Shown: one piece after another, positions 3,258 through 40,000 of the stretch | How positions within the stretch are numbered: position 1 is the stretch's first letter | Layout of the letters: the number at the start of each line of letters is the position of its first letter | Assembly (NCBI GenBank): GCA_963798805.1 | Contig: CAWCVC010000004.1 | Span: 1-40,000, forward strand | DNA length: 40,000 nt | From: an uncultured Alphaproteobacteria bacterium | Lineage (GTDB): Bacteria > Pseudomonadota > Alphaproteobacteria > Rhizobiales > Rhodomicrobiaceae | Reading direction: 5' to 3' | The notes under the pieces: model-generated | The model's input: only the letters and a program-made list of their open reading frames with translations | What the model was told of the DNA's origin: nothing | Databases searched by the model: none | Position numbers and translations under genes: made by a program

Positions 3258-4242
3258 ATGTCTTGCGCCTCCGATCTCGCGCGCGGTCTCGGCGCACATG
3301 CCGAGGCCGTGTGCCGCCATTACCTGCCGAGCGGCCGCCGCGAGGGGCGATATTGGATCTGCGGCGACGTCATGGGAACGCCTGGCCGCAGCCTCTATGT
3401 CCGTCTGTTTGGCCCACGTGCCGGAAAATGGACCGATGCTGCAGATGGAACCCATGGCGACCTTCTCGATCTCATCGCCCTCAATCGCGGCCTCGATTTC
3501 CGCGCCGCGCTCGACGAGGCAAGGGCATTCCTCAGCCTGCCAATGCCGCCGATCCGCCATGCGGAACCGCCTGCCAGAGCGTGGTTCATCGGAAGCGGCA
3601 AGACGTCTGTTCGCCGCATCGAAGCCCGTTCGCGGCACACTGGCGGAAAGCTGGTTCCGCCAACGCGGCATTCTGCTGCCTGCGGACGCATCCGCCTTGC
3701 GCTTCCACCCGCGATGCTTCTATCGCGGGCCGGTGGGACGCGAAACATGGCCCGCGCTCATTGCCGCGGTGACCTCCCCTAGCGGCGCCATTACCGGCGT
3801 GCATCGCACCTGGCTGCATCCGGATGGCGGCAAGGCGCCGGTCGATCAGCCCCGCCGCGCGCTCGGCGCTCTCGCCGGCAACGCGGTGCGGTTCGGCAGC
3901 GCCTCGGATGTGCTGACGGCTGCGGAAGGGATCGAAACCGCCCTGGCGCTCAAAATGGTCATGCCGAAGATGCCAGTTGCCGCTGCGCTGTCCTCCGCCC
4001 ACCTCGCCGCCCTGGTCATGCCATCGTCACTCCGCCGCCTCTATGTCGCCGTCGACAATGATGCGGCCGGGGCCTTCGCGCTGGAACGGCTGCGGTCCAG
4101 ATGTGCACGGATCGAGATCCGCCCGCTCGCGCCGAGGACGGAGGATTTCAATGCCGATCTTCTGGCCCTCGGCCCGCCCCGCTTACGCGCATGGCTCGCC
4201 GGGCAGCTTGCGCCAGGCGACGCCGAACGCCTTGCGTCTTGA
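3258..4242 (+). pseudogene. DUF7146/Toprim-domain ICE protein; one frameshift
   Basis: The N-terminus MSCASDLARGLGAHAEAVCRHYLPSGRREGRYWICGDV...GKWTDAADGTHGDLLDLI (ORF 3258..) is typical of this ICE family. The sense frame switches near 3570-3585 into ORF 3298..4242: SSEAARRLFAASKPVRGTLAESWFRQRGI...AAEGIETALAL...VAVDNDAAG (Toprim-like acidic motifs). Confidence 0.75.
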
Positions 4243-10840: not shown

Positions 10841-12055
10841 TTAGCCTGCCGAAAACACCTCAAGCTTCCGGCCATCGCGAAGGGCATCCAGATAGTCGGC
10901 GTACCATTGAAGCATACTGCGTCGGCCTGTGAGATATTGAGCGGCATTGTAAGCGCCGCGAATCTTATTGGCTTCGTCGTGCGCTAATTGCCGCTCAATC
11001 CAATCGGGATGGAATCCGTTCTCGTTCAAAACGGTAGAGGCGACGCCCCTGAAACCGTGAACGGTTGCGCGGGAATGATGGCCCATTCGGTACAATGCGT
11101 AGAGCATGGTGTTTTCGCTCATGCCGCCTTTCTTCCCGCCGGATGGGAACAGGTAGGTGCCGTAACCGGTCAGCGGACGCAATGCATTAAGAATCTCGAC
11201 GGCCTGATGCGGTAGGGGAACTAGATGCTCCCGGGGCATTTTCATGCGTGAGGCAGGTATACGCCATAGAGGGGCATCGCCGCCCAGGTCTTCAAACTCC
11301 CGCCATTCCGCGCCGCGCAGCTCTTTCGTTCTAACCATCGTTAAAATGATCAGCCTAAGAGCCAGACGGGTTGTGACCTCGCCATCATAGGCTTCAAGTT
11401 GCCGAAGGAATGCGGGAAGCTCGCTGCGAGACATGGTCTTTTGATGCTGCACCGGCGGCGCTGCCTTCAGTGCGCCGCGAAGGTCCGCTGAAGGATCGCG
11501 CCGCGCCCGGCCGCTGGCAATCGCAAAGCGAAATATCTGCCCGCAGTGTTCCCGAAGGCGTTTGGTGATGTCATGCGCCCCGCGCCCCTCGACCTTGCGA
11601 AGCACGTCCAGCAGCTCCGGCGGCTCGATTGCCGCAACGGGCTGTTTGCCAATATAGGGAAAAATATCGCGTTCCAGCCGACGGATGATTCGCCCAGCGT
11701 GTTCCGGCGTCCATCGGTGAAGCTGGGCTTTATGCCATTCCCGCGCCATTGCTTCGAACGAGTTCTCGACCGCCAGGCGCAGCGCAGCCTTCTCAGCTTT
11801 GCGCGCCACTCCCGGATCAACGCCTTGCGCAAGCTGCTCTTTCGCTGCTTCACGGGCCTTCCGCGCGGCAGCAAGGCCGGTAGTCGGATATATGCCCATG
11901 GCTAGCGTCTTCTGCTTGCCAGCGAAGCGGTACGAGAACCGCCAAAGCCTTTTTCCGTCCGGCTGAATCAGAATAAAAAGACCGCCGCCATCAGCTTTCT
12001 TAAAGGGTTTAGGCGCGCCTTTCGGCTTGCGCAGGTAGGTGTCGGTCAGCGGCAT
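10841..12055 (-). CDS. Tyrosine recombinase/integrase, P4-type with DUF4102 N-terminal domain
   Basis: N-terminus MPLTDTYLRKPK..KPFKKADGGGLFILIQPDGKRLWRFSYRFAGKQKTLAMGIYP. Catalytic residues: VRTKELR, HGFRGV, LAHDE, RGAYNAAQY. ATG 12055 is preferred over the TTG at 12121 because GAGAGGAA lies about 8 nt upstream. Confidence 0.9.
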   Translation of the reverse strand: MPLTDTYLRKPKGAPKPFKKADGGGLFILIQPDGKRLWRFSYRFAGKQKTLAMGIYPTTGLAAARKAREAAKEQLAQGVDPGVARKAEKAALRLAVENSFEAMAREWHKAQLHRWTPEHAGRIIRRLERDIFPYIGKQPVAAIEPPELLDVLRKVEGRGAHDITKRLREHCGQIFRFAIASGRARRDPSADLRGALKAAPPVQHQKTMSRSELPAFLRQLEAYDGEVTTRLALRLIILTMVRTKELRGAEWREFEDLGGDAPLWRIPASRMKMPREHLVPLPHQAVEILNALRPLTGYGTYLFPSGGKKGGMSENTMLYALYRMGHHSRATVHGFRGVASTVLNENGFHPDWIERQLAHDEANKIRGAYNAAQYLTGRRSMLQWYADYLDALRDGRKLEVFSAG

Positions 12056-12378
12056 GTTGGTATTCCTCTCGCCCGGCAATGTCGGTACCAAAGGATCTAC
12101 CAACGAATGCGTTGGTTTCAATGAGAAAAGATGAAACGGATTATGGGCAAAATATCCCGTTTTCTCTATGATTTACATGAGATTAAGAGACTTATTGAGA
12201 CGTCGAGAAACAGGTAATGGTGCCGCAAGAGGGCACCAAACTGGCTTCTCACCGCATCGCTTCAAATCTCTTGAAATATCATAATTATTAGGTTTTACAG
12301 ACAGGTTAGCGTCTCTTCTTGTCTCCGCCCGTCGCTTCGCATAACATCCAAGCAACCGCTTTTGATATGGGCTGAAGT

Positions 12379-13539
12379 ATGGGCAAGTTGACCGATGTGC
12401 GGGTGCGAAAGACCGCGCAGACAGGACTGCACAATGATGGATATGGTCTCTATCTGAAGGTGACGGATGGTGACGCGCGGTCCTGGATTTTCCGGTTCAA
12501 GATCGGCGGCCGAACACGCGATATGGGGCTCGGGCCTTATCCTGAAATTTCGCTCGCCGATGCCCGTGAGAAGGCTGCTGATGCCAGAAAGCTGACACGA
12601 CAGGGCATCGACCCAATCGAAGCTCGCAGAGCTGACGGCGGGGCCGCGAAAGGGATGACCTTCGACAAGGCGGCTGCGGCCTACATCCAGGCTCACAAAG
12701 CGGGCTGGCGCGGCGCGCGAACGGCGCATCGCTGGCAATCAGAGCTGGAGCGCTACGCCTACCCTGCTTTCGGTAAGCGCGACGTGGCCACCGTCACCGT
12801 TGATGATGTACTGCGGATCCTTGCGCCGATCTGGACGACAAAGAACGAGACAGCATCAAAGGTCCGTGAGCGGATTGAAGCCGTGCTGGATTGGGCAGCG
12901 GCTAAGGGCTACCGCTCTGGCGTGAACCCGGCAATGTGGCGCGGGAATCTAAAACATCTCTTGCCAGCCCGCGCCAAGGTTCACACAGTCCGACATCATC
13001 CCGCCCTGCCGTGGCAGGAGCTGCCTGCCTTCATGGCCGATCTGCGCGGCCGTGACGCGCTTGCGGCCAGGGCATTGGAGACCACCATCTTGACGGCATG
13101 CCGCACGAGCGAAGTTCTGAATGCGGATCGTTCTGAATTGAATGGCGATCTATGGGTGATACCGGCCGAGCGAATGAAGGCGCGAAAGGAGCATCGCGTG
13201 CCGCTCTCCACTCAGGCTTTCACAATCATTTCATCGCTGCCATGTATTGCGGGCAATAGCTACGTCTTTCCCGGTCATCGTGACGGTCGTTCGCTGTCGG
13301 GCATGGCCATGGAGATGCTTCTGCGGCGCATGGGCCGCAGCGACATCACCGTGCACGGCTTTCGTTCCACGTTCCGCGACTGGGCAGCCGAAGCAACCGA
13401 TTTTCCTAGAGAAATTAGTGAATTGTGCTTGGCGCATGAAGTTGGCAATGAGGTTGAGCGCGCCTACCGGCGAAGTGACCTGCTGCTTAAACGTAGGGGA
13501 CTGATGCAGAAATGGGCTGATTATTGCTATCAGAAATAG
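12379..13539 (+). CDS. Tyrosine recombinase/integrase, P4-type with DUF4102 N-terminal domain (second copy, divergent)
   Basis: N-terminus MGKLTDVRVRKTAQTGLHNDGYGLYLKVTDGDARSWIFRFKIGGRTRDMGLGPYP. Catalytic residues: CRTSEVL, HGFRSTFRDW, LAHEVGNEVERAYRRSD. Intact at 386 aa. Confidence 0.9.
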   Translation: MGKLTDVRVRKTAQTGLHNDGYGLYLKVTDGDARSWIFRFKIGGRTRDMGLGPYPEISLADAREKAADARKLTRQGIDPIEARRADGGAAKGMTFDKAAAAYIQAHKAGWRGARTAHRWQSELERYAYPAFGKRDVATVTVDDVLRILAPIWTTKNETASKVRERIEAVLDWAAAKGYRSGVNPAMWRGNLKHLLPARAKVHTVRHHPALPWQELPAFMADLRGRDALAARALETTILTACRTSEVLNADRSELNGDLWVIPAERMKARKEHRVPLSTQAFTIISSLPCIAGNSYVFPGHRDGRSLSGMAMEMLLRRMGRSDITVHGFRSTFRDWAAEATDFPREISELCLAHEVGNEVERAYRRSDLLLKRRGLMQKWADYCYQK

Positions 13540-15353: not shown

Positions 15354-15716
15354 GCAACAGTGCCCTCGCAGGTTCTTCTGGGAGGAAGGAACCGCAGCAG
15401 GAGTGGTATCGCGCACTTGCCAAAAGCACCTACCAGAGGACACGTGTCTAGCGACTCATAGCCGAGCGCAAGCCGTATCAAGTTCTACAGTTTTTGTACG
15501 AACAAATTCGCTCAATGCACCAAAACTGCGCCCGCTCTGCCACAGCCGCAAAACGCATAATTGGCCGTGGACGATTGGGCCAGACACCCATTTTCTCGTA
15601 AGCTGCGGATTAGACATCGTGCTAGCGTCCCGCAAAGTCGAGCTTAGCAGCGCTCTCCCTCATAGATTCAGCAGTCTTTGGGCCACCAAAGGCGACAGTT
15701 TTTGGAGAGGTACCGC

Positions 15717-16673
15717 ATGAGTAGCGCAGTTACTGAGGCGGAGAACGATAAGCTCGCTAATGCATTGCTGGTTCCCTGCACAAGCAGGAAATCGGTGCGT
15801 CCTGCACCCGAAGCGTGCGCAGTTTCATTGCCAAAGACTTGTCAACAGGGTGTTGAAACTGCTTGGTTGAGTCGCCTTAGCACCTTACCGGTTCGGCTAC
15901 CTGCGGGAGCGCTTTACGCGGGTCGAGGTTTTCACTTAGCCCGCCAAACTGCCAAAGCGTCTGGCGCCGCCCTCTACGCGGTGTCTGCCGGCTTAGGTCT
16001 GGTTGCAGCTGAACGGATCGTCCCTGCCTACGGCCTTACCATAGATGGACGCAGTCCTGAGAGCTTAACTGGCCGGGTCAGCGGCCTGTTTGATGCAACG
16101 GCTTGGTGGCGGGCTATTAGTTCAGGTCCATTTGCAACACAGTTGAGCGAACTGTTTGGCGGGGAAGTTGGGACACCGGTACTCGTAGCCCTTACCCGAC
16201 CATACGCACGAATGTTAGCTCCGGCGCTCGATGCCATACCAGATGTAGCCGTTGCTTATCTCAGAATTGTTGGCGTCAAGCTCGACGTGCTTCTGCCGCA
16301 GCGCCTGTCATCGCAATTGTTGCCCTACGATGAGCGCCTCGAGACAATTCTGCCAGGAACACGCGCCGACTTTCCCCAACGGGCTATCGCGCATTTTGTC
16401 AAGGAGGTGCTGCGTGCCCACCCAGACGCCGACGCGGCCGAGCACCGCCACTGGGTCGAGATGACGCTCGCTGGACGAAGTGCGCCCCAGCGCCGGCAAC
16501 GCCTGCGGCTTTCCGATAACGAGATTGTGCGGCTCATCGAGCGGCACCTGCCGGAGACAAGTGCGATTGGCCGTCTCCTGCGTATCATTCGGGATGAGGA
16601 GGGCGTCGCGTGTGAGCAGACACGTTTTACGAGGTTGTATCGCGCCACGATCGAACGGAGGGCCGCAGCATGA
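15717..16673 (+). CDS. First gene of the dpd modification operon; DpdC-like candidate (YaaA/DUF328- or DUF6884-like pattern)
   Basis: 318 aa, with RBS GGAGAGG upstream of ATG 15717. LLVPCTSRK...LPAGALYAGRGFHLARQ...LYAVSAGLGLVAAERIVPAYGLTI resembles the xxCxxxK...A..lY.g..f...ilSA.yGLv.p...i.pYd.t pattern. The stop overlaps the next start (ATGA). The assignment rests on position and motif only. Confidence 0.45.
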   Translation: MSSAVTEAENDKLANALLVPCTSRKSVRPAPEACAVSLPKTCQQGVETAWLSRLSTLPVRLPAGALYAGRGFHLARQTAKASGAALYAVSAGLGLVAAERIVPAYGLTIDGRSPESLTGRVSGLFDATAWWRAISSGPFATQLSELFGGEVGTPVLVALTRPYARMLAPALDAIPDVAVAYLRIVGVKLDVLLPQRLSSQLLPYDERLETILPGTRADFPQRAIAHFVKEVLRAHPDADAAEHRHWVEMTLAGRSAPQRRQRLRLSDNEIVRLIERHLPETSAIGRLLRIIRDEEGVACEQTRFTRLYRATIERRAAA

Positions 16674-21938: not shown

Positions 21939-24096
21939 CTAGCTCTCTCCGTCGCGCAAGTGGGCTTCGATGGCGCGCAAGATGCTCGAGAACCCGCGGC
22001 CCTGGGCGTAGAGCAAAGGCCGATTGGCTCGATGGTCTCGGATAAAGTCGGTTGCTGCGTGCTTGGCGGACTGCCAAGTCAGCACGAAAATGTCAGCATT
22101 CTCGGCAAGGGCTCGCAACCTTGCGCTTCCGACCTGGTCGGCGTTGCATTCAACGACCGCTGACGGCGCGATCTCCTCAATCGCCGCCTTAGCTTGTCTG
22201 CTCGACGTTTCAGTAAGTGTGTAGATAGCGATTCGCTTGCTAGCGAGCCGATCTGAATAGTGATCGCTGGGCGTCACGCTGGCGGGCAGGCCAAAGCTTG
22301 CGAACTCCCAGCCGAGTTCAACGCTCAAGCGGGATAAGGCACTGCGCTGTAGGCTGCTTAGCCTGCCATAGATTGGCGCCACCTTGGCCAGAGCAGCATG
22401 AAGAAAAGTTTCGCGTACGTCTGGAGACGACGCCCCAAAGCTAAGCAGGATTTCGATGATCTCGAGCAGCCAGTAGATCATCTCAACGCCGAAGCCTCGG
22501 CCGGCAAGCTCTTCGACATCCGAGATCAGGTCGCGATAGCTTTTCTCGTCCAATCCGGAGGCGAGCATTGCGTAGATTAGAAGTTGACTGGATTCATAAA
22601 TCCCGCGTCCTCGCGCCGAACTGAGGGCAAGCAAAGTCAGCAAATGCGAGTAAACTGGGACCACCGCGCTCCTTGGGAAAAGCGGGTCGCGTCGGAGCCA
22701 AGCCGTTATGAACGGAAGCGCATGCATCGTGCGCTCCGCCGCAAGCTCGAGACTGTTGCGCTCTGTCCAATGCGGCGACGAACCGCTGCACGACCACTGG
22801 GTCATCGAGTGCTTCACCGACTGGCCACTCGTCCATACCCTGGCGTGCGATATCTAGCGCATTGGAAAACGCAGGATCGCCGGCTTGCTCCAACCATTCC
22901 AACCAGTCGCGGGGCACACGCCCAGCCGGCAGTTCCTGCTGCAGTGCTCGCAGCAGCGTGCGAAAAGGCTCTGCCTCTCGGAGCCGACCGAAGTCGGTGG
23001 CATCCAGCTTCTCAAGGTTCGCGATCGCGCTGGCGACCGAGTCGAGACTTGACGCGGTGTCGAACTCCGTCAGAGCGTCGCGCGCTTCATCGATGGGGTT
23101 CGGTTGTACTTCGCGGATGCGGTCAACGGCCTCGAAATTAGAAGGCGCATCCACGACCTTGGTGGCGAGCCATCCAATCTGATCGTCACGGGTTGAAAGG
23201 GCATCGGTGAGATCGCGACGGCTCGGCGCAACCCAGGCTTCAAGTGCAAGGATCCGCCAGCCCCCCTGCATAAGCGTGACCGGTGCGGGCATGCCGAGCA
23301 TCGGGTGGGCAAGCGGTCTGACATGCTCTTCATAAGCTGCCCGCGTCGCATTCGCGTCACCCGAATCGAAGGCTGCTGCCAGGTGACCGCGATAAAGAGC
23401 CTCGAACAGGAGTGCGACAATCGCTGGCGGCTTACGAGCCTGGCAGAGGCTCGCAAATCCAGGCAGGTTGAGGATCGTCGGCCACTCATCGAACGCCGCG
23501 AGCAGTTGAACGTTGAGGAATTTGAGGTTGAGTGCGTCGAGCCGAAGTTCGGAGCGAAGCCGCTTCAGTAGGATCATCGCAGGCTCGCGCGCGCCGACGT
23601 TCAGATAATCTTGAAATTCAGCGAGCATCCAACTAGTCGGCTCTGGCGCGCGGCGCTGCAAAGTCGGCGCACGAGCAAGCGTACCGCGCAAGCACTCCAG
23701 GGCACGGAGTGCGGCGACCGTCCGCTTGGCTTCACTAGGCAGCCGCAAGACGGTTGCGGTGACAGGCCCAGCCTCTCGCACCAGGTCTGCAATTGGATCT
23801 TCTGCTGGTAAATTCACGGGCCGCCCGTCAAAGGAGGTGATCGTCGGTCCGGCAAATGCGACGAGTACTGGCGCGAGCCGTCGCCATTGGGCCGCAGTTG
23901 GGGCGGCCACATAGACATTAACCTCCCCCGTGTCTCGGACGGATGGGATCAGGGCGCCTGGAAAACCCGCGTCGACAACGGTCGCCAAGAGCGCCCGGCA
24001 CAGATCGGTGGCATCATGCGGAAGTCGATCGTAAGCGGCGGCGCCATGCAACCGGTCGCGAACGGCGATCGAGAGCTCTGGATCGGCTGCTATCAT
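21939..24096 (-). pseudogene. dpdD: DpdD-like protein (last gene of the - strand operon); one frameshift
   Basis: ORF 22594..24114 (N-terminal part) and ORF 21939..22817 (C-terminal part) overlap by 224 nt in different frames. Sense appears to switch near 22745-22760: ...FVAALDRAQQS then LELAAERTMHALPFITAWL. The C-terminus IAIYTLTE...ADIFVLTWQSAKHAATDFI...PLLYAQGRGFSSILRAI is DUF2325-like. ATG 24096 is preferred because GGAGGAG lies 8 nt upstream and it forms an ATGA overlap with the dpdK stop. The name is assigned by elimination and position. Confidence 0.55.
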
Positions 24097-24620: not shown

Positions 24621-27600
24621 CAGACCTGCTCCCTTAAAGCAAGCGTCGCGAGCATATTCCCCTCGGCACGCTCCATCCGCTCGACCGCTGGAAAGAACTG
24701 AAGGAAACCAACATCGACTGGAGTAGCTGCCAGCCTCACTAATATATGGCGAAGGCCGGCTGCCGCGCTGGCCGTAGCACGCAAGCGGCAAACACCATGC
24801 GCTTCGAAGGCCGTCTGAAGCTGCATTTCCCAATCTGGATCCTCGAGATCAACCGTCGTGATTGAACCGGTGAGCAGCAAATGCCCTACAAGCCCAGGAT
24901 CGGTGGTTCGGGCTTGCCGATAAGGATGGTAGGCGTGAAGGACCTTCTGCCGAAGCTCGGCCTCTCGGGGCCAGAGCAATGTCATAAGAGCAGCATTGAT
25001 CGTCACATGATCAATGGCCGCCGCAGGGACTGTCGCCGACAAGAAACTCCGGACCGCAGGGGCGATCAGTCGATCCTTGCTGCAGATGAAGGCGAACTCA
25101 CGAAGGCCGATCGACAGCCCGAACTCGGCCTCGAGTGCGTCCCAGCGCTCCTGAAGCATGCGAAGCAACTGATCGAGTTCAGGTCCTGAGCCCGAGCGGA
25201 GCAGGCGCGTGTTGAGGGAGACGGTGAAGGCGTGACTGAGGTCGATCGAGCCTCTGGATGCGAGGATGGGCGATAGCTCATGCCAGTGGATCGCGCGCTC
25301 GGCATGTGAACTGGTCGAGCGAAGCTTGGCAAGGAGGCCGGCGATCTTGGTGTCAGTCTGTGCGAGGCTCAACACTTCGCGGAGGCTGCCATCGACCAGT
25401 TCGAGGTCCGTTGGAGCCAGCGCTGCCTCCAACGCGCTGAAGAATAGCCGCGGCTCGGCAGCGAAGCTTTCGGCAAATGCCTGTAGGACGCCAGCACCGC
25501 CAACGGTCAATTCGGTGATCCAGACGCGCGCAATGTCGGCCTGGGGCACCTGGTGAATGTCGACCAGTAGGGTGTCGACGGTCGCATGGCGAGGGGCAGC
25601 TACGGCGCAGGCCTGAAGCATCGCTTCCCCGAGCGTTTCGAGGACGGTTCGCCGCAGCCACGCACCGAAAGCCTCCTGATCTGGATTTGAGAGCTGCGCC
25701 GCAGTTGCGCGCAGCGCGTCGCGAACGACGGCCCGACCGAGTTGGACTGCAAGCGACTGTTGCAAACGACTTGAGCCTTGCGGACCCGACGCTCGCGCCT
25801 GGAGAGGGGGCGCATTGTCTGTATCGTCAGCCTCGTCTCCGTTCGCCTCCTCATCATCTGGGAGAGGCGGCGGCAATGCGCCGAAAATCTCGTTCATCGC
25901 GCTCTGGAGCGTTGCATGGAGATGCGGCTCCGCAAGTAGATCGGCCGCTACGGCGCCAATGGATCGGCTGCTCGCTACGGCGTCGGACAGGAGCGCCGAG
26001 ACAAGAATCTGGAAGAGCCAGTCGCGCTGAAAGCTGTTCAAATCTTCAGGCAGCGAGGTGTCCGTCAGAAACCGGTCACGCGCATGAGCCAGCTTGCTGC
26101 TCGCCAAGAGCCGCGGCGGCAGCCCACTCTCGATGAGACGGCCCGCGGCCGGAAGCTCAAGATCAATATAGAAACCGTCGAACTCCCAGCTCGAAGCCGA
26201 GCGCCGCACGCCGACCGTCATCGCTCCTGAAATGAAGCGTGACTGGAAAGTCGTCCTGAAGCGTGCGGATATTCGCATTCACGGTCGGAGCGAAGCGCCT
26301 GACGCTGACGCTCGCCCGAAACCGGTGCAGGTGGAAGCCGACCGCCTTAACATACGTGTGCCATCGCGTCCGGGGCGGCACGCGTACAATCAGAGGATCT
26401 CCGTTCGGCTCGATATCAGTCCGCCAACTCAGGTGCGCATTGCTGCTGGGGAGTGCGTCGGTGCGCGCAGCGCGCTGAAGGCGCACTTGCCATGGCCTGA
26501 AGACGAGCAGCGGATCTTCCTCTGCGTCATCATTGCAGCGCGCTAGGAAGCTGCCGACAAACTCATTCTCCTCAGCATAATCGCTGATGCGTAGCTGTTG
26601 GATGGGCATTGACGGGTCAACCGGCACCCAGTGCGACAATCCTCCTCGTTCAAAGGCGAAACGCCGTGTCACACGCCCAGGCGCCAGCTGATTGAGAGCT
26701 TGCAATATCGGCACCATCTCAACCCGCTCCTCGTAGTGAACAGTGGCAGGCGGAATGATGACCCGGACTTCAGGAAGGTTCAGGTCGCTAAAGAGGGTCC
26801 GCGGCACAAAGTCAGGTAGCGGGTGGTAATCGATCTGGAGATCAAATTCGCGCGCGCCATCTGGGAAAGCGAGTTGCCAATGTCGGAATAGACGGCGGAC
26901 GAGGGTCGGGACTGCTTCCAAGAGGAGCGAGCGGGGCGCTTCCCATAAAAGCATGTCGACCGTTTGTGTATCGAGCGCGAGTGCACCTTCAAGATAGGTT
27001 CGCAAGTTGCATAGCGCTGCCTCGTCACCCTGGATAACTTGGGTCAGCAGTTTTTTCGCGGCCTCAATGACCAACTTTTCCGGTGCCGACGGATTTGGCA
27101 CTGGCCGGCTCAGAAAATTCCAGAACCAGCTCTTCTCGAATCCAGCAGTCCGGGCAGCTAGCCAATCGATCAATGCAAAGACAGCCTGGATCTTCAGGAC
27201 ATAGGGGTTATGAATAGGGAGGTGCTGCGGTTCGAGCGTTGGATCGAACAGGTGCTCGTAGGCCTGATAGAAGCTGCGGTCACGTCCATAATCGGAAAGC
27301 ACGGTAAGCGTGATGGGGCGCATCCGCCGATCCCGTCCCGCACGGCCCTTGCGTTGCAGGAAAGACGCCATTCCGCGCGGCGCCTTGTGTTGGATGACGG
27401 CACCAACCTCAGGATCGTTAAATCCGACCTCGAGGGCGGCGGTCGCGACGACGATGTTGGCGCTCTGGTTGACCCCCGCGTCCTGCGATGTGGTACGACC
27501 AACCACTAGACGGCGATTGAGCGGGTGGCCAATTTCTTCGCATAGTTTCCAGCGTTGACCTTCGAGGTCGCGTAGAGCAGCGTCAGGGCCTGCACTTCTC

Positions 27601-32951: not shown

Positions 32952-33872
32952 TATACCGGAGCCTTTCTAACTATATGAGTTATGCGCTCAGTTCTCACCC
33001 CGAAGTCGAGTAGCAACGGGGGCGCATCGGCCCGGCTGATCATTTCGATCTGCTGGCGATCGGCGAGCCGCTGTAGCGCGATGCTGGTCGCAGGTGAAAG
33101 ACGGCGTTCACTCTGGTAAGGTGACGCCCCGTTCATTGCCTCGATTTCCTGCCGCGCCGACCCACCTTCGAGCACCGGGAAGATGCCCGCGAGTTTGCTC
33201 ATGAAGGCGTCGCCGGACAGTTCGGTGACCGAGGAGAATATTGTCGGGAGCGCTGAGGCAATGGCGCCGCAAGGATCCGGAACCGCGCGACGGGCGTCCT
33301 TACCGTCGTCCTGATCGTGCGTTCCGAGCAGGGTCGCAAATTCGAGGTAACGGGCCCAATAGAGAAAGTTTTGGTAGCGGTTGAGGTTGGTCAACTCGGT
33401 GCGGTCATACTCCTCGCCCAAGGTGGAACGCAGCAAGTTCTGCGGTGGGGTCGCAAAACCGATCGGCTCTAAGGGGCTAAGCGTCAGGAACCAAGCCAAA
33501 GCAAGCATGAAGCCTGCTTGCTGGCTCTCTGCTGCACGCGCTGGGTCGAAGAGAGTTCTGAGAAGGTGGGCGCGAAACCGCTCCTCATATGCCGTTTTTT
33601 CGGCCGCCACCCTCGCGTGCTTCGCCCGGGACCCTGAGCCTGTCGTCAATCTCTTCGATGAGCCCTAGCTTCTTCGCCTCGGCCAACGTGTTGGTGAACA
33701 ATGTTGTCGCCGTGTCGCTATCCTCGTCGCTGCCCCCCCGGGAGCGGAGCGACGGCGGCGTAGACCAACCCTCCAGACGCTCCCGCACTACACCGTTTGG
33801 ATTGTCGACAAGCGACACATAAAGGCTGTAAAGGCGACTGGGAACAGCCTGCGCGGTGGTGATAATGCTCAT
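32951..33872 (-). pseudogene. dpdG: DpdG-like protein (assigned by position); one frameshift
   Basis: ORF 33585..33872 (MSIITTAQAVPSRLYSLYVSL...) and ORF 32951..33649 overlap in different frames. Removing one A from the A6 run (T6 at 33595-33600 on the + strand) gives a continuous ...PGEAREGGGRKTAYEERFRAHLL... of about 306 aa. ATGA overlap with the dpdF stop; TAATG overlap with the dpdH start. Confidence 0.55.
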
Positions 33873-35246
33873 TCGGCAACCTTTGCGTGGAGCTCATGGA
33901 GGGTCAGAATCCTGCTAGCAAACACGTCGCGTAAGCGACGCCCGTCGGGTGCGAGATAGTCTTTGGGAGCGATGAAGATACGCGGCGTCTCAGGTCTAGG
34001 CGCAAGGTTCACGGGCTCCAGCACAAACTTTCCTGTTACCATCACAATTTCGGGCCCTTTGGGCTGGCGGGAGTAGACAAGCGCCGATACTTTGCTCACG
34101 AAGAATGGGACTCTCTCTGCGAATTCCAGCACGCGCTTCATATCGAAGGGCTGCTCGCCCAGGAGCAGCAGCTTGGACACGCCGGCTTGCTGCAGACGTC
34201 GGAAGCTCTCCGCTAGACGACGCGAGGCGTTCCGAGGCAGGTCGTCCGGATCATAGGTGACCAGAAGACGGCCGTCGTGGCCGAGTAGGCGAACCAGGGA
34301 AGGTGTGAGCGGTGGGTGCCAAGGCGAGCGCGGCTCGCTGACGGATACGGGCTTGTGAAGTTGACCGGGGTTCGCCCGGCAGCGACTGCACCGACTGCAC
34401 AGACGCCCGAGTCGATTCGCGCCGTAGAGATCCTCGAAAACATTGGCCGGGCAGCAATCGTCTCGCAAATAGCGCCGCATCAGCGCCAGGTTGCGCTCAT
34501 TTGCCCTCCACACTTCCTCGCGGACCGGCCCGAGGCGTTCCTTCCAGACCACCTCGTCGAGATGCCCTTCGTCAAGGATTTCGATTTCAAGCCAATCGCC
34601 TATTTTTTCGATCCGGGGATATGGTGTGCCGAGCATCCGGATGAGTCCAGCGCGAGCCATCAGCGCCAGAGTTCGTAGATTCCAATCGGTGTTCGCCTCA
34701 CCGAACATATCGATATCCTTCTCGGCATTGCCGGGGCGCCCATCGATACGCAGCGCCCAGCGGCCCGTGTCGAGTTTCCATTTCTTATTGAACATGGCCG
34801 TCCAGCGGTGTAGGCCTCGGTCGATTCCTATCACTTTTTGCTGGTTGATCTGTTCGGCCAAGCCAAAGTCGCGCTCAGTCGGGACGATAAGCGATAGCGA
34901 GACGCAACCATCGCGACCGCCGCGCCCTACCTCCTGGTAGAAGCGATCGAGTGTCTCGGGCACGCAGGCATGAATAACTGTGCGCGCGTGAGGGTAGTCG
35001 ATCCCGAGCCCAAAGGCCGAAGTGCCAACCACGACATCGAGCTGGCCTTGACGCCAGGAGTCCACGACTCGCTCGCGTTCCTGGCGATCTGACCTGCCAT
35101 GGAGCTTGGCTATCCGCCTGAAGCCCGCGCGGAGAAGGCGGCGATGCCAGGCATCAGCATCTTCGACCTGTGTCACATAGAGAACTGTGGGGCGTGGTGT
35201 GTGGTGCAGCGCCTCGAGTACCCGCGCGATACGTTCGTTCTCATTA

Positions 35247-36292
35247 GAGCGCCGGACCTAAAAGCGGAATCAGGATTCCACTTTTAAGCGAACTGTGATT
35301 CACCATGTCAGGAGGTGGATCATGGGCAAGAGCTATTCCTCGGATTTGCGGGAGCGTGTTGCCGCTTTTGTCGGGGCGGGGCATTCGCGCCGCGCGGCTT
35401 CGCGGCATTTCGGTGTCAGCGGCAGCTTCTCGATCAAGCTGATGCAGCGTGTGAGGGCCTTGGGTTCGATCCTGCCTGGGCAGCAGGGCCGGCCACCGGG
35501 CAAAGGCAAGCTTGCTGCCCATGAGGCCTTTCTTATCGAGGCGGTCGAAGCAAAGCCTGACATGACCATGCCGGAGTTGAGCGCAAGGCTGCAAGCCGAG
35601 CGTGGTGTATGCGCTGAGCCGGCGAGTTTGTCGCGCTTTCTCTGCCGGCGCGGCTTTACTTATAAAAAAAACGCTGATGGCGTCGGAATGCGCACGCGCC
35701 GATGTCAAGGCTGAACGCCGTCTCTGGATCGATCGCCGCCAGCCCAGAATGTGTCTCGAGCCGCATCGTCTCGTCTTTATCGATGAGACCTCTGTCAACA
35801 CGAAGATGGTGAGGCTTCGAGGCCGCTCTCCTTGTGGTGAGCGGCTGCGCGCCGATGCACCCTTCGGCCATTGGGGAACCCAAACCTTTATCGCTGGCCT
35901 TCGCTGCAATGAGCTGACAGCGCCGTGGGTGATCGACAAGGCGATCGATCGGGCATCCTTCGATCTTTGGGTCGAAACCCAACTCGCTCCGACCCTGTCG
36001 CCGGGCGATGTGGTCATTCTCGACAACCTCGCCGTCCACAAGAGCGCCAAAGCCGCCGAATGCCTGAAGCGCCGAGGCGCCTGGTTCCTCTTCTTGCCGC
36101 CCTACTCTCCAGACCTCAATCCGATCGAGATGGCCTTCGCCAAGCTCAAGGCACATCTGCGCGCCGCCGCCGCCAGGACCTTCGACGCCCTATGGCGAGC
36201 CATTGGCGATATCTGCGACCTGTTCAGCCCCGAAGAATGTTGGAATTATCTGCAAGCTGCCGGATATGCGTCCGATTAAAAGTCCGATGCTC
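35247..36292 (+). mobile_element. IS630-family insertion sequence (1046 bp) with TA target duplication
   Basis: TA at 35245-35246 and TA at 36293-36294 flank the element. Imperfect terminal inverted repeats are GAGCGCCGGACCTAAAAGCGGA and GAGCATCGGACTTTTAATCGGA (reverse complement of the right end), with 16 of the first 25 positions matching. The transposase genes lie inside. Confidence 0.85.
35322..36279 (+). CDS. IS630-family transposase encoded in two frames bridged at an A8 tract
   Basis: Frame A starts at ATG 35322 (RBS AGGAGG): [23 protein letters not shown]. Frame B runs to 36279: [12 protein letters not shown]...[12 protein letters not shown]...DNLAVHKS...[19 protein letters not shown] (DDE signature region of IS630/Tc1-like transposases). 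The junction is at A8, 35664-35671. Confidence 0.8.
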
Positions 36293-37462
36293 TAGGTGTC
36301 GCCGGAGCGATCCAATAATCCGGCTCAGGACGAAGCTGCACAGCTGCTATGCTTTCGAAAGGACCATCGGTCCCGAATAGAGCGCGGAGGGTCTCGAGTG
36401 AGGTTTCAGTCAGTGTTGCTGAGAGAAGCAAGGTGCGCATTCGCTGATCGGGCCGTGCGGCGGCGATCAGTTCACGCCGAAGGCCACTCAGTTCCTGAAA
36501 CTCGGTGCGGAAGCCAGTTCCCCATTGGTCAACGAGATGCGCTTCGTCGATCACCAGCGCGCGAAGATGACCATGCTCCGCCGCAGTTCGTAGCGACGAC
36601 CGCAAGCGGCCGCAGGCGGCTTCAGGCGACGCAAAGCAAAGGCCAAGCGTTCCATCTGCGATGCGCTCGGCGATGACGGCATTCTGAACGTCATCGCCGC
36701 CCCGGAAAGCAAGCGGCCGCTCGAGTCCACAAACCCGAACGGCTTCCTGCTCGTGATTTATGCCGAGGGCGACCGTCGGAATAATAACGAGTGCGATGCC
36801 CCGTGCCTCCGGCTGCGCGCCCACAAAACCGACGCTTTGGACAAGCTGGAAGACCATGCTCTTGCCCTCTCCCGTCGGCAGCGCGATGACGAGGGTGCCA
36901 CCGGCGGGCGTGCACAGCGCTGCCCGAACCGCGGCTCGCTGTCCCGGGCTGCGATATGCTGTGCGGTTGATGGACTTGAGACAGGGATCGCCGGTTGTTC
37001 CAGGGCCAGTAAAATCTCGCAATACGTGCTCGGAAGTTGCATAGCCATCGACCCCCTCACTCGCTTGCCCCAACCACTCCGGCGACCACGGCTGGGCGGT
37101 GATCGAGAGGCTATCGCCTGAACGGTTTGCTCGCAGTCCCACCCGCTCCCAGTGGCTAAAAGCGGTCAGCCGAGGGTGACGAAGGCGAATCGTTGGAGAA
37201 ACGGCATAGGATCGCCGAGCATGCTCGTGCCTGAGCGCTTGCCTTAATAGGACGGCAAGGTCGAGCGGGCTCGCGCGCGATGGTTGTTCTGCAAGCGCGG
37301 CACGGAGTCGATCGATGGCAGGTGAACTCGCAGACCAAGCGTCTGCCGCTTCCGTGTCGCCCAGGAGCGCCCGCATCGCTTCGAACGCCCCATGCCCTTC
37401 AAGCTCAGTCATTGGAGCCCCGCTGAGGCCGCTGCCTTGTAACCACGAACGCGCCCATAGCT

Positions 37463-40000
37463 TCAAGCCGCACCGAGGGCGTAGCGAGAACTCGGCAGGA
37501 TCATTTCTAGGAGAGCGATGTCCGAGCGCGCCATGGCATCACCAGCCGACTGGCGTCGCAGTAGCCTATTCCGGCGTCGTTCGAGATCGGCACGTGCTGA
37601 TGCCACGGCCGACGTGATTCTCGTTTGCGGCTCGGGGCGCGTGCGCACTATCTCACGCGCTTTGTCGCGAATGGCGCGGCACCGTTCGCTGAATGACGTG
37701 AGGTCAATGACTTGTTCCAGAAGCTGAAGCCGGCTAGAGAGATTGGTGTCGCGACCGCCATCCTCGACGCTCCGATAAGGGCGCCCGAGCACATCCAAAA
37801 GCTTAGGGTCTGTCACTTCCTCGCCGTTGATATCGATCACTAGCTGATGGCCTTGGGAGGGAAGATAAACCTGTGCACGCCTGAATGCTGCTAACTCCTC
37901 ACGTGTGGGCGCGAGCAAATCGGATAATTGAATGTCGGGCTCGATGATAAAGGAGAGCCGAAAACCGATCCAAAGATCGGCGACAAATTCGGGAGCTACT
38001 CGCCAGGTCGCGAAGGCTGTGCCTCGATCGTCCCAACGCGTGAACCGTTCGATGATATCGACGAGCGGCGTGCCGGGCCGCAGCAATGTCACGGCAGGAT
38101 CACGCGTGGCGATCCTCCGGCGCCAAGTAAGGCGCTCATTGCCATCGACTTCGAACTCCATCAGCCAAGGCTCGCGCGGCACAAGCGCGCCTTGGCTGAT
38201 GCTTAACTTGAAGGGGTCTTCATTGGGTCGGGCAGATGAGAGCCTTTTGAACTGAAGTACACCGATCAACCATTGGTGTACGTCACGTTCGAGCTGCGGC
38301 TCATCCGATTCGGCATCTTCGAGCAAGTTAATGAAATCTTCAACTGGCTCTTCGGCGAGCGCAATCTGATCGAGTGCAAATTGCTCGTCCTGAGACCGGC
38401 GCTCTTCCCGAATCCGCTCCCGCATCTCGTTGGTGAACGCCGCCAACGCGTCGGGGCCGTTCAACAGCAGCGTCCGGAACGCTTCGGCTTCGAAACCCTC
38501 CAGCAAAAACTGCACATCACTGATGGACTGATTGAAAATTAGAAGTCCGCGCGCGAGAAAATCGAACCACGCGGCCCATGGATTTCCGTCTTCATCGGAT
38601 GGTAGCAGAATGCGGTGGCGGATCAGGTTCTGGCGCCTCCCAAAGCGATCGAGCCTACCAATTCGTTGCTCAAGTCGTGCTGCGGAAAATGGAAGATCGA
38701 GATGGACGATCGCGTCGGCGCAAGCAAGATTGAGGCCCTCTTCACCGCATCGGTCGGTGACTAGCAGACTTGGCAGATCCGACGCGACGAAATTTGCCAC
38801 TGCGTGGGGATCTTCGTTCTCTCTAGCGTAGGTAAGGAGAAAGGCAGGCGCGTCGTCGATATGCTCCTTCAGCGCCTCGAAGAATGCGGTCGCGACGCCG
38901 GTCGAAGAAGAGAAGACAACGATCTTCGGATGTGGCCCTTCTTTACGGAGAAGTCTTGATGAGCCGTTTCGTGCTGTCAACCATCAGCTCGATTCGGGGC
39001 TCAGCCTCCCGCTCGTCGGGATTGGGCGTCAGGCTTGCGAGGAACTCGGGTTCATCGTCAAAGAGAACCTCTGTCTGCCTAAGTTCTCGGGCAAGATGGC
39101 TTGGTGAGACGCTAAGCGCTGATAGAAAGAGCGCATAGCGAGCGGCAAGACGATTGAGCAACTTTTCGTCACTGCCACCTGCCTCGATGGCCGAATAGCG
39201 CCAATCTTCCAACACTGCGAACAGCCTATGTGTTTCATGCGGATTAGTCTCGAATTTGACGTGTGAAAGGTTTGGCTCATTCTCGACCTTTGGCCCGCGC
39301 GGCATGAACTCCCAGCCCGCGGCGTCGGCGCGGCGCGAGCGGATTAGCCGCTGATGGATACGATAGGTATCGGCGATATGTTCCTTAAGCGTTGTACAAA
39401 GTGAAGGGACAGCTTCCGGAGCCTCGCGAGTAGCTGCCGCGAGGCATGGGGCCAACTCCGAGACAATGGGATCATCAGGAAAGAGGCGTTGCAATTCGGC
39501 GCCGCGTTGGCGAAGTACGAGCCCAGGATTGTCCGGATCGAGGCTTAACAGGATACGACCGAACTCACGCCGTTGCTCAAGCTTCGCACGAAAGCTTTCT
39601 ACATCATCGAGCGAGTGAGTCAGTGGATCGAGCAGATTGAGAAGCGCCAGGAATCGAGCCTCGTCGCCGAGCGCCGGGGTTGCTGAGAGAAGCAGCAGCA
39701 CAGGAGCCTGGGCAGCCAGTTCACGCAACCTGATGGCTGACGCGGCAAGCGGACCGCCGTCTATCCCGACGACGTGATGAGCTTCGTCCACAACGAGGAT
39801 ATCAGGAACCTGTGTTACCTGGCCCAAGTCGGCATGGCTAACATATTCCAAGCGCTTGCCGAACTGGTCGAGCCGGAGCTTCGTTTCCAATTCAGTGCGC
39901 CACTGCTGCCGCAGATGCGACGGCACAGCGATCAGCACTGCTGTGTCTGGTTTGTCGATTAGGTGCTGACGAACAATAAGCCCGGCCTCGATCGTTTTTC
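37463..40000 (-). pseudogene. dpdE: SNF2-family helicase, DpdE-like; 5' end outside window; one frameshift
   Basis: The upstream frame is open to base 40000: KTIEAGLIVRQHL... (motif I tail), ILVVDEAHHV (DEAH), LLLSATP. ORF 38943..39938 ends ...KRLIKTSP*. ORF 37463..38980 continues in another frame with LLRKEGPHPKIVVFSS...TDRCGEEGLNL...LEQRIGRLDRFGR (SNF2 motifs IV-VI). The 38-nt overlap places the shift near 38945-38965. Confidence 0.65.

Follow-up and report, generated by a model that had tools for sequence, protein, structure and literature searches.

The Dpd (7-deazaguanine) modification-restriction system of Salmonella enterica serovar Montevideo comprises DpdA to DpdK. DpdA, DpdB and DpdC lead to DNA modification, and DpdD to DpdK to the restriction phenotype (PMC10164549). 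Insertion sequences (ISs) of the IS630 family duplicate a TA target and move by cut-and-paste, as was shown biochemically (PMC2170065), and frameshift or transcriptional realignment has been documented in this family (PMC5009743, PMC6211511). Both kinds of elements are found in the stretch of DNA analysed here (the window), i.e., the first 40,000 nucleotides of contig C4 (CAWCVC010000004.1) of an uncultured alphaproteobacterium of the Rhodomicrobiaceae, whose genome (GCA_963798805.1, 6.0 Mb in 19 contigs) was searched as G000. All coordinates are given in window numbering unless otherwise stated. It is very probable that an IS630-family element recently inserted at a TA within dpdF, a gene of a mobile Dpd island, and split the helicase that it encodes, which would keep modification and abolish restriction.

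The interruption can be compared with a natural empty site. A sequence of 20.7 kb, L027, taken from the ENA metagenome contig ERZ25039539:contig_39642, was picked up through its DpdI, a protein letter-for-letter identical to the DpdI of the window. It is 99.9% identical to positions 19184-40945 of contig C4 (window part 19184-40000) and does not carry the IS: the two blocks of the alignment adjoin at one TA, precisely at the join predicted from the window. In L027, an open reading frame (ORF) of 622 amino acids crosses this site and matches positions 10-612 of the DpdF profile NF041063 in one stretch, with 724.8 bits for a cut-off of 550. This empty site is direct evidence of an insertion into an intact gene with duplication of the TA. 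The boundaries of the IS are thus fixed in three independent ways: by a second copy on contig C1 (C1:1-1049), which terminates at the same bases as the dpdF copy, by relatives carried by plasmids of Bosea and Sinorhizobium, and by the empty site of L027. The first-pass annotation, made from the letters of the window, had already placed a TA at each end of the element as a duplicated target, and the single TA of L027 bears this out.

The same annotation had stated that conceptual excision restores the helicase frame exactly, which agrees with all the comparisons made. When the flanks are joined by script with one TA kept, the frame is free of stops and encodes 849 amino acids from a TTG at 37466 or 831 amino acids from an ATG at 37412. 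The latter start overlaps the stop of dpdE and is the one used in the gene call of L027; the motif positions of Table 1 refer to this reading of 831 residues. Across the junction, the joined protein reads ...YWIAPATPNENERIARVLE..., and it aligns through this point with 11 full-length homologues, with a length difference of one residue in a variable linker. As it stands, the minus strand carries one ORF on each side of the IS, 36276-37466 upstream and 33869-35176 downstream, with the Pfam domains DEAD (PF00270) in the former and Helicase_C (PF00271) in the latter. In the intact DpdF of Ensifer sp. R-19 (848 amino acids, 811 bits on NF041063), the N-terminal piece corresponds to residues 14-390 (68% identity) and the C-terminal piece to residues 392-848 (65%). 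The insertion lies after motif III and before motif VI, as previously proposed (Table 1).

A contig search with the single C-terminal piece of DpdF gave no match; an alignment-based search then led to Ensifer and Sphingobium at 64%. Ensifer sp. R-19 and Sphingobium fuliginis are the closest named genomes with a DpdF, in both cases as an uninterrupted ORF of 848-862 amino acids sharing 64-68% identity. An uninterrupted allele was also sought among relatives: a search for DpdF in 60 genomes of the same genus, family and order found RecQ-type helicases only and no DpdF. Since these 60 relatives lack DpdF, the dpd island is not vertically shared.

Over 19.8 kb, the filled allele of the window and the empty allele of L027 do not differ by any substitution outside GANTC motifs. 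The IS is present in two copies in the whole genome, which are 1 base apart (the difference, at window position 36198, is synonymous). Because of this lack of substitutions and of the near identity of the two copies, the insertion would be very recent. The first-pass annotation had judged it recent from the undecayed junction, a view now more strongly backed than the sequence alone allowed. As all the homologues are uninterrupted, the difference between the two alleles is taken as an insertion in this lineage rather than as a precise excision in L027.

The assignment of the element to the IS630 family, which had also been proposed earlier, agrees with its transposase and with its ends. The imperfect terminal inverted repeats (TIRs) noticed at first measure 24 nucleotides counting the TA and are 75% complementary; without the TA, 16 of the 22 terminal bases match. 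The transposase is encoded by two ORFs, orfA and orfB, oriented antisense to the dpd operon. The product of orfA alone matches the N-terminal third of the transposase profile NF033545 (46 bits), and its score against PF01710 (HTH_Tnp_IS630) is 21.2 bits, just below the cut-off of 21.3. The product of orfB exceeds the cut-offs of both family profiles that it matches (100 bits for NF033545 and 28.6 bits for PF13358; Table 1). In the numbering of a conceptual orfA-orfB fusion of 318 amino acids, the catalytic triad is D154, D234 and E269, within the motifs FIDET, ILDN and NPIEM, and the spacing of 35 between the second D and the E defines a DD35E transposase.

The two ORFs overlap at a run of eight A, orfB being in frame +1 relative to orfA. 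Their fusion requires that this run be shortened by one A or lengthened by two, and reading it one A shorter gives the transposase of 318 amino acids. The relatives found on the plasmid of Bosea sp. AS-1 (NZ_CP022370.1) and on plasmids of Sinorhizobium sojae/fredii, annotated as IS630-family elements, have 75-77% nucleotide identity with the dpdF IS and share its termini. They also have the same two-frame layout, with A7G in place of A8 and no indel, and their annotated transposase coding sequence spans 955 nucleotides, i.e., 3n+1. Near relatives in the protein collection are almost all orfB calls of 200 amino acids, forms of 318 amino acids in a single ORF being found only at 73-75% identity. 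As the plasmid relatives share the two-frame layout, the split between orfA and orfB seems to be a conserved feature and not the mark of a dead copy. A dead, frameshifted transposase was therefore rejected as an explanation of the A8 run, and a -1 ribosomal frameshift was rejected as well, because orfB sits in the +1 frame. The IS could then be active through slippage on the A-run.

The consequences of this insertion can be proposed from the gene layout. An element of the IS630/Tc1-mariner type, moving by cut-and-paste, would have entered a TA in dpdF and duplicated it. The predicted product of dpdF is a RecQ-like superfamily 2 (SF2) helicase of the Dpd island, and the insertion would part its RecA-like domain 1 (motifs I-III) from its domain 2 (motifs IV-VI). 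The 5' part now encodes 373 residues of DpdF followed by 5 foreign residues, with a stop at 36276-36278 inside the IS. This stump and a presumably promoterless 3' part would not provide any functional helicase, since parting the two RecA-like domains of an SF2 helicase should remove ATP-driven translocation. The earlier statement that function must be abolished is thus plausible from helicase architecture. Furthermore, since the IS lies antisense within an operon of overlapping genes, it may be polar on the downstream dpdG-H-I-J-K-D. A scan of the IS region for promoters and terminators found no promoter-like site and two weak terminator-like sites for 1.3 expected, which neither supports nor opposes polarity. 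On the plus strand, dpdA, the two dpdB, queC and queE are untouched. The expected phenotype would be a DNA modification that is retained and a Dpd restriction that is lost, which is the tolerated direction of inactivation of a restriction-modification (R-M) system.

The dpdF gene is not the only one that appears broken in the window: frameshifts are also seen in dpdE, dpdG, dpdJ and dpdD, and an in-frame TGA in dpdH. Had these five genes already decayed into pseudogenes, the IS would have hit a dead operon and changed nothing. This is very unlikely, as the counterparts of four of these genes in L027 are whole and above the NCBIfam cut-offs (DpdE, 1021 amino acids; DpdG, 306; DpdJ, 1520; DpdD, 718), and as most of the differences between the two sequences have the features of sequencing errors. 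The window and L027 differ at 20 positions in 19.8 kb, by 13 substitutions and seven indels. Each of the 13 substitutions exchanges G and A (C and T when read on the other strand) at the G of a GANTC motif, a coincidence whose probability by chance is about 6e-26; the motif is lost sometimes in the window and sometimes in L027. Among the seven indels, four consist of an additional base inside GANTC, at 26181 (dpdJ), 31594 (dpdH), and 37489 and 38951 (dpdE); at the dpdH position, both assemblies are frame-broken, in different ways. Another indel lies in a homopolymer (T6/T5 at 33595, in dpdG), and the two others, at 22752 (dpdD) and 34523 (dpdF of L027), have no obvious context. At 22752, the dpdD of the window is broken by one extra A compared to L027, in neither a GANTC motif nor a homopolymer. 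A CTCGAG signal that could explain this indel was sought among the contexts of indels between genome repeats and none was found; the extra A may have arisen by true mutation in the lineage that carries the IS, or be an error of another kind.

The bias towards GANTC is not restricted to the island. Among near-identical repeats of the genome, 12-23% of the substitutions fall on the G of GANTC, whereas 1.1% would be expected. The indels among these repeats are mostly real differences between copies; 16 of them destroy a GANTC and three create one, a modest asymmetry. The genome also encodes a homologue of CcrM (G000:C10:265977-266642), which matches Caulobacter CcrM (6pbd_A) over its full length with E = 7.7e-163, and GANTC-linked errors have been documented in nanopore assemblies of Alphaproteobacteria, in agrobacteria and Brucella (PMC12710330, PMC12392509). 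As IS families of 1.1-1.7 kb with 9-33 near-identical copies each are all assembled through, the genome was presumably assembled from nanopore-type reads. The concentration of differences at GANTC, the genome-wide bias, the presence of CcrM and the documented error type make it probable that the apparent decay next to dpdF is mostly long-read consensus error at CcrM-methylated sites or homopolymers. It is far less likely that the miscalls on the G of GANTC report a 7-deazaguanine at that G and not the N6-methyladenine made by CcrM. The IS insertion probably stands alone, or almost alone, as a real lesion, and is probably the only one that cannot be a consensus error. It should be emphasized that sequencing errors at CcrM sites account for most of the apparently wholesale decay of this restriction operon, and that annotators should not treat these genes as pseudogenes.

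Several points weigh against a recent IS insertion that by itself turned off Dpd restriction. None of the assembled copies of dpdF is open over its whole length, since the dpdF of L027 is broken by its own 1-base indel around L027 position 5375 (equivalent to window position 34523) into 622 and 203 amino acids; at this position, the reading of the window agrees with the homologues and L027 deviates. The frame breaks at 22752 (dpdD) and 33595 (dpdG) lie outside GANTC and, if they are real, the loss of restriction had other causes as well. What DpdF does specifically in restriction, like the roles of the other single Dpd proteins, is unsettled in the literature (PMC10164549). Finally, the near-identical second copy of the IS stands at the very start of contig C1, so that the assembler met this repeat as a problem.

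This last point, the existence of an IS-free version of the same island and the systematic consensus errors of the assembly could suggest that the IS was threaded into dpdF by mis-resolution of a repeat and that no DNA molecule carries the insertion. Such an artefact is extremely improbable. Repeat mis-joins link unrelated flanks, whereas the flanks are here the adjacent halves of one codon series. Furthermore, they are separated by exactly the element and a duplicated TA, a pattern biochemically characteristic of IS630 integration (PMC2170065), and the assembly of IS families with 9-33 copies elsewhere indicates that the reads evidently span repeats of 1-1.7 kb. The first-pass annotation had called the event non-artefactual, and the logic of the sequence argues in the same direction. 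A recent insertion into dpdF is thus retained, and it is probably the main real lesion of the restriction operon.

Other features of the assembly concern its mobile elements. Directly after the TA of the second IS copy comes an IS481-family element, of which contig C3 carries a 100% identical copy, so that this contig break holds a nested IS region (C1:1-2100). The IS load of the genome is very high (e.g., C2:2627-4283, C2:203279-204423 and C2:31317-32657). Stretches of 9-17 kb recur across two or three contigs, with 99.0-99.7% identity (C12:30428-45336/C14:1-16652/C19:16870-33534 and C13:11317-20046/C15:279002-287740). Together with a contamination of 4.69%, these repeated stretches point to a mixture of strains or to duplication of a mobile element.

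The filled and empty alleles could also coexist in the sampled population, the record showing only one of them, in which case the insertion would be an unfixed polymorphism and the population would not be without DpdF. The recovery of an empty-site allele free of non-GANTC substitutions from a public metagenome assembly would fit with this possibility, as would the contamination of 4.69% and the stretches of 15-17 kb that occur in duplicate, on different contigs, at 99.4-99.7%; both suggest mixed strains. However, L027 and the genome may come from different samples, and an exact-product look-up of the shortened N-terminal fragment of DpdF returned no record on other contigs. An unfixed polymorphism is therefore less likely than not. 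It is unlikely that a single natural population contains both alleles as a restriction-off/on polymorphism of this mobile island, each retaining modification. If this were true, the IS630 insertion would be a population-level switch opening some cells to unmodified foreign DNA, and the two alleles would be a natural near-isogenic pair for the part played by DpdF in Dpd restriction. By itself, a recent insertion into dpdF is a routine knock-out of a defence gene by an IS. Nevertheless, the Dpd island is available both with the 1-kb insertion in dpdF and free of it, with no non-GANTC substitution between the two versions, and this pair could be used to test whether DpdF is needed for restriction, a question left open by the literature.

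The dpd genes of the window are distributed on both strands. NCBIfam matches identify DpdE, DpdF, DpdG, DpdH, DpdI, DpdJ, DpdK and DpdD on the minus strand, and DpdB, DpdA, a second DpdB, QueE and QueC on the plus strand. DpdC was not recognised in the window; the modification operon of the plus strand begins with an ORF, 15678-16673, upstream of dpdB, that has no NCBIfam match. The cluster is flanked by two P4-type integrases, a TraI-like fragment and an RlxS-type relaxase, and the G+C content of contig C4 is 59.4% versus about 62%. From these features, the dpd island appears to be carried by an integrative or mobilisable element.

Table 1. Coordinates of the insertion, of the interrupted dpdF gene, of the motifs of the joined DpdF and of the genes flanking the island.
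Feature	Position	Strand	Basis
Left copy of duplicated TA target	35245-35246	.	single TA at join in L027
IS630-family insertion sequence, 1046 bp	35247-36292	+	profile matches, TIRs, TA pair
Left terminal inverted repeat	35247-35268	+	16 of 22 bases match the other end
orfA, putative helix-turn-helix (HTH) DNA-binding part of transposase	35322-35714	+	NF033545 positions 2-115, 46 bits
orfB, DDE catalytic part of transposase	35602-36279	+	NF033545 135.1 bits; PF13358 DDE_3 108.2 bits
A8 run in overlap of orfA (frame 0) and orfB (frame +1); probable recoding/slippage site	35664-35671	+	
Right terminal inverted repeat	36271-36292	+	nearly invariant among relatives
Right copy of duplicated TA target	36293-36294	.	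single TA at join in L027
dpdF 5' part, RecA-like domain 1 with motifs I, II (DEAH) and III (SAT)	36295-37412	-	NF041063 positions 10-360, 375.6 bits
dpdF 3' part, RecA-like domain 2 with motif VI and DpdF-specific C-terminal region	33869-35244	-	NF041063 positions 385-809, 378.6 bits; PF00271
Joined DpdF, motif I GEGKS	residue 181		
Joined DpdF, motif II DEAH	residue 289		
Joined DpdF, motif III SAT	residue 331		
Joined DpdF, junction codon Pro	residue 373		
Joined DpdF, motif VI QxxGRxxR	residue 477		
TraI-like/P4-integrase flanking genes	3298-4242, 10841-12121, 12379-13539		
RlxS-type relaxase	C4:41923-43665 (L023 3923-5665)		

Compared to described insertion sequences, the dpdF element resembles IS630 from Shigella sonnei and ISY100 from Synechocystis by its size of about 1 kb, its imperfect TIRs, its DD35E transposase with a putative HTH part and its insertion at TA with duplication. 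It differs from both by its transposase, which is encoded in two frames meeting at A8 whereas those of IS630 and ISY100 are encoded in a single ORF. Its target, TTAG/CTAA, shares three of the four bases of CTAG, the preferred target of the IS630 family. The elements of the Bosea and Sinorhizobium plasmids have the same end sequences but only 75-77% nucleotide identity. The element in dpdF belongs to the IS630 family and has not been named.

The errors documented for Oxford Nanopore reads at GANTC sites methylated by CcrM are similar to those of the window, i.e., G/A (C/T) miscalls on the G and an extra A in GA-NTC. This pattern concerns the neighbouring apparent lesions and not the insertion of the IS.

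As for the island itself, the NCBIfam equivalogs of DpdA, DpdB and DpdD to DpdK of the Montevideo system are found in the window together with QueC and QueE. Like the Montevideo Dpd, it spans about 20 kb and carries its modification and restriction genes on opposite strands, but it has two DpdB paralogues, no recognisable DpdC and an interrupted dpdF. The host system corresponds to a standard form of Dpd with two DpdB, and neither the island nor the IS lies outside known kinds. The insertion can also be compared to the inactivation by ISs of the restriction half of R-M and other defence systems, after which the modification activity persists as an orphan: here too, a gene of the restriction side would be struck and the modification side left intact, as judged from the gene layout. 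Unlike in the usual knock-outs of this half, the struck gene would encode a helicase and not a nuclease.

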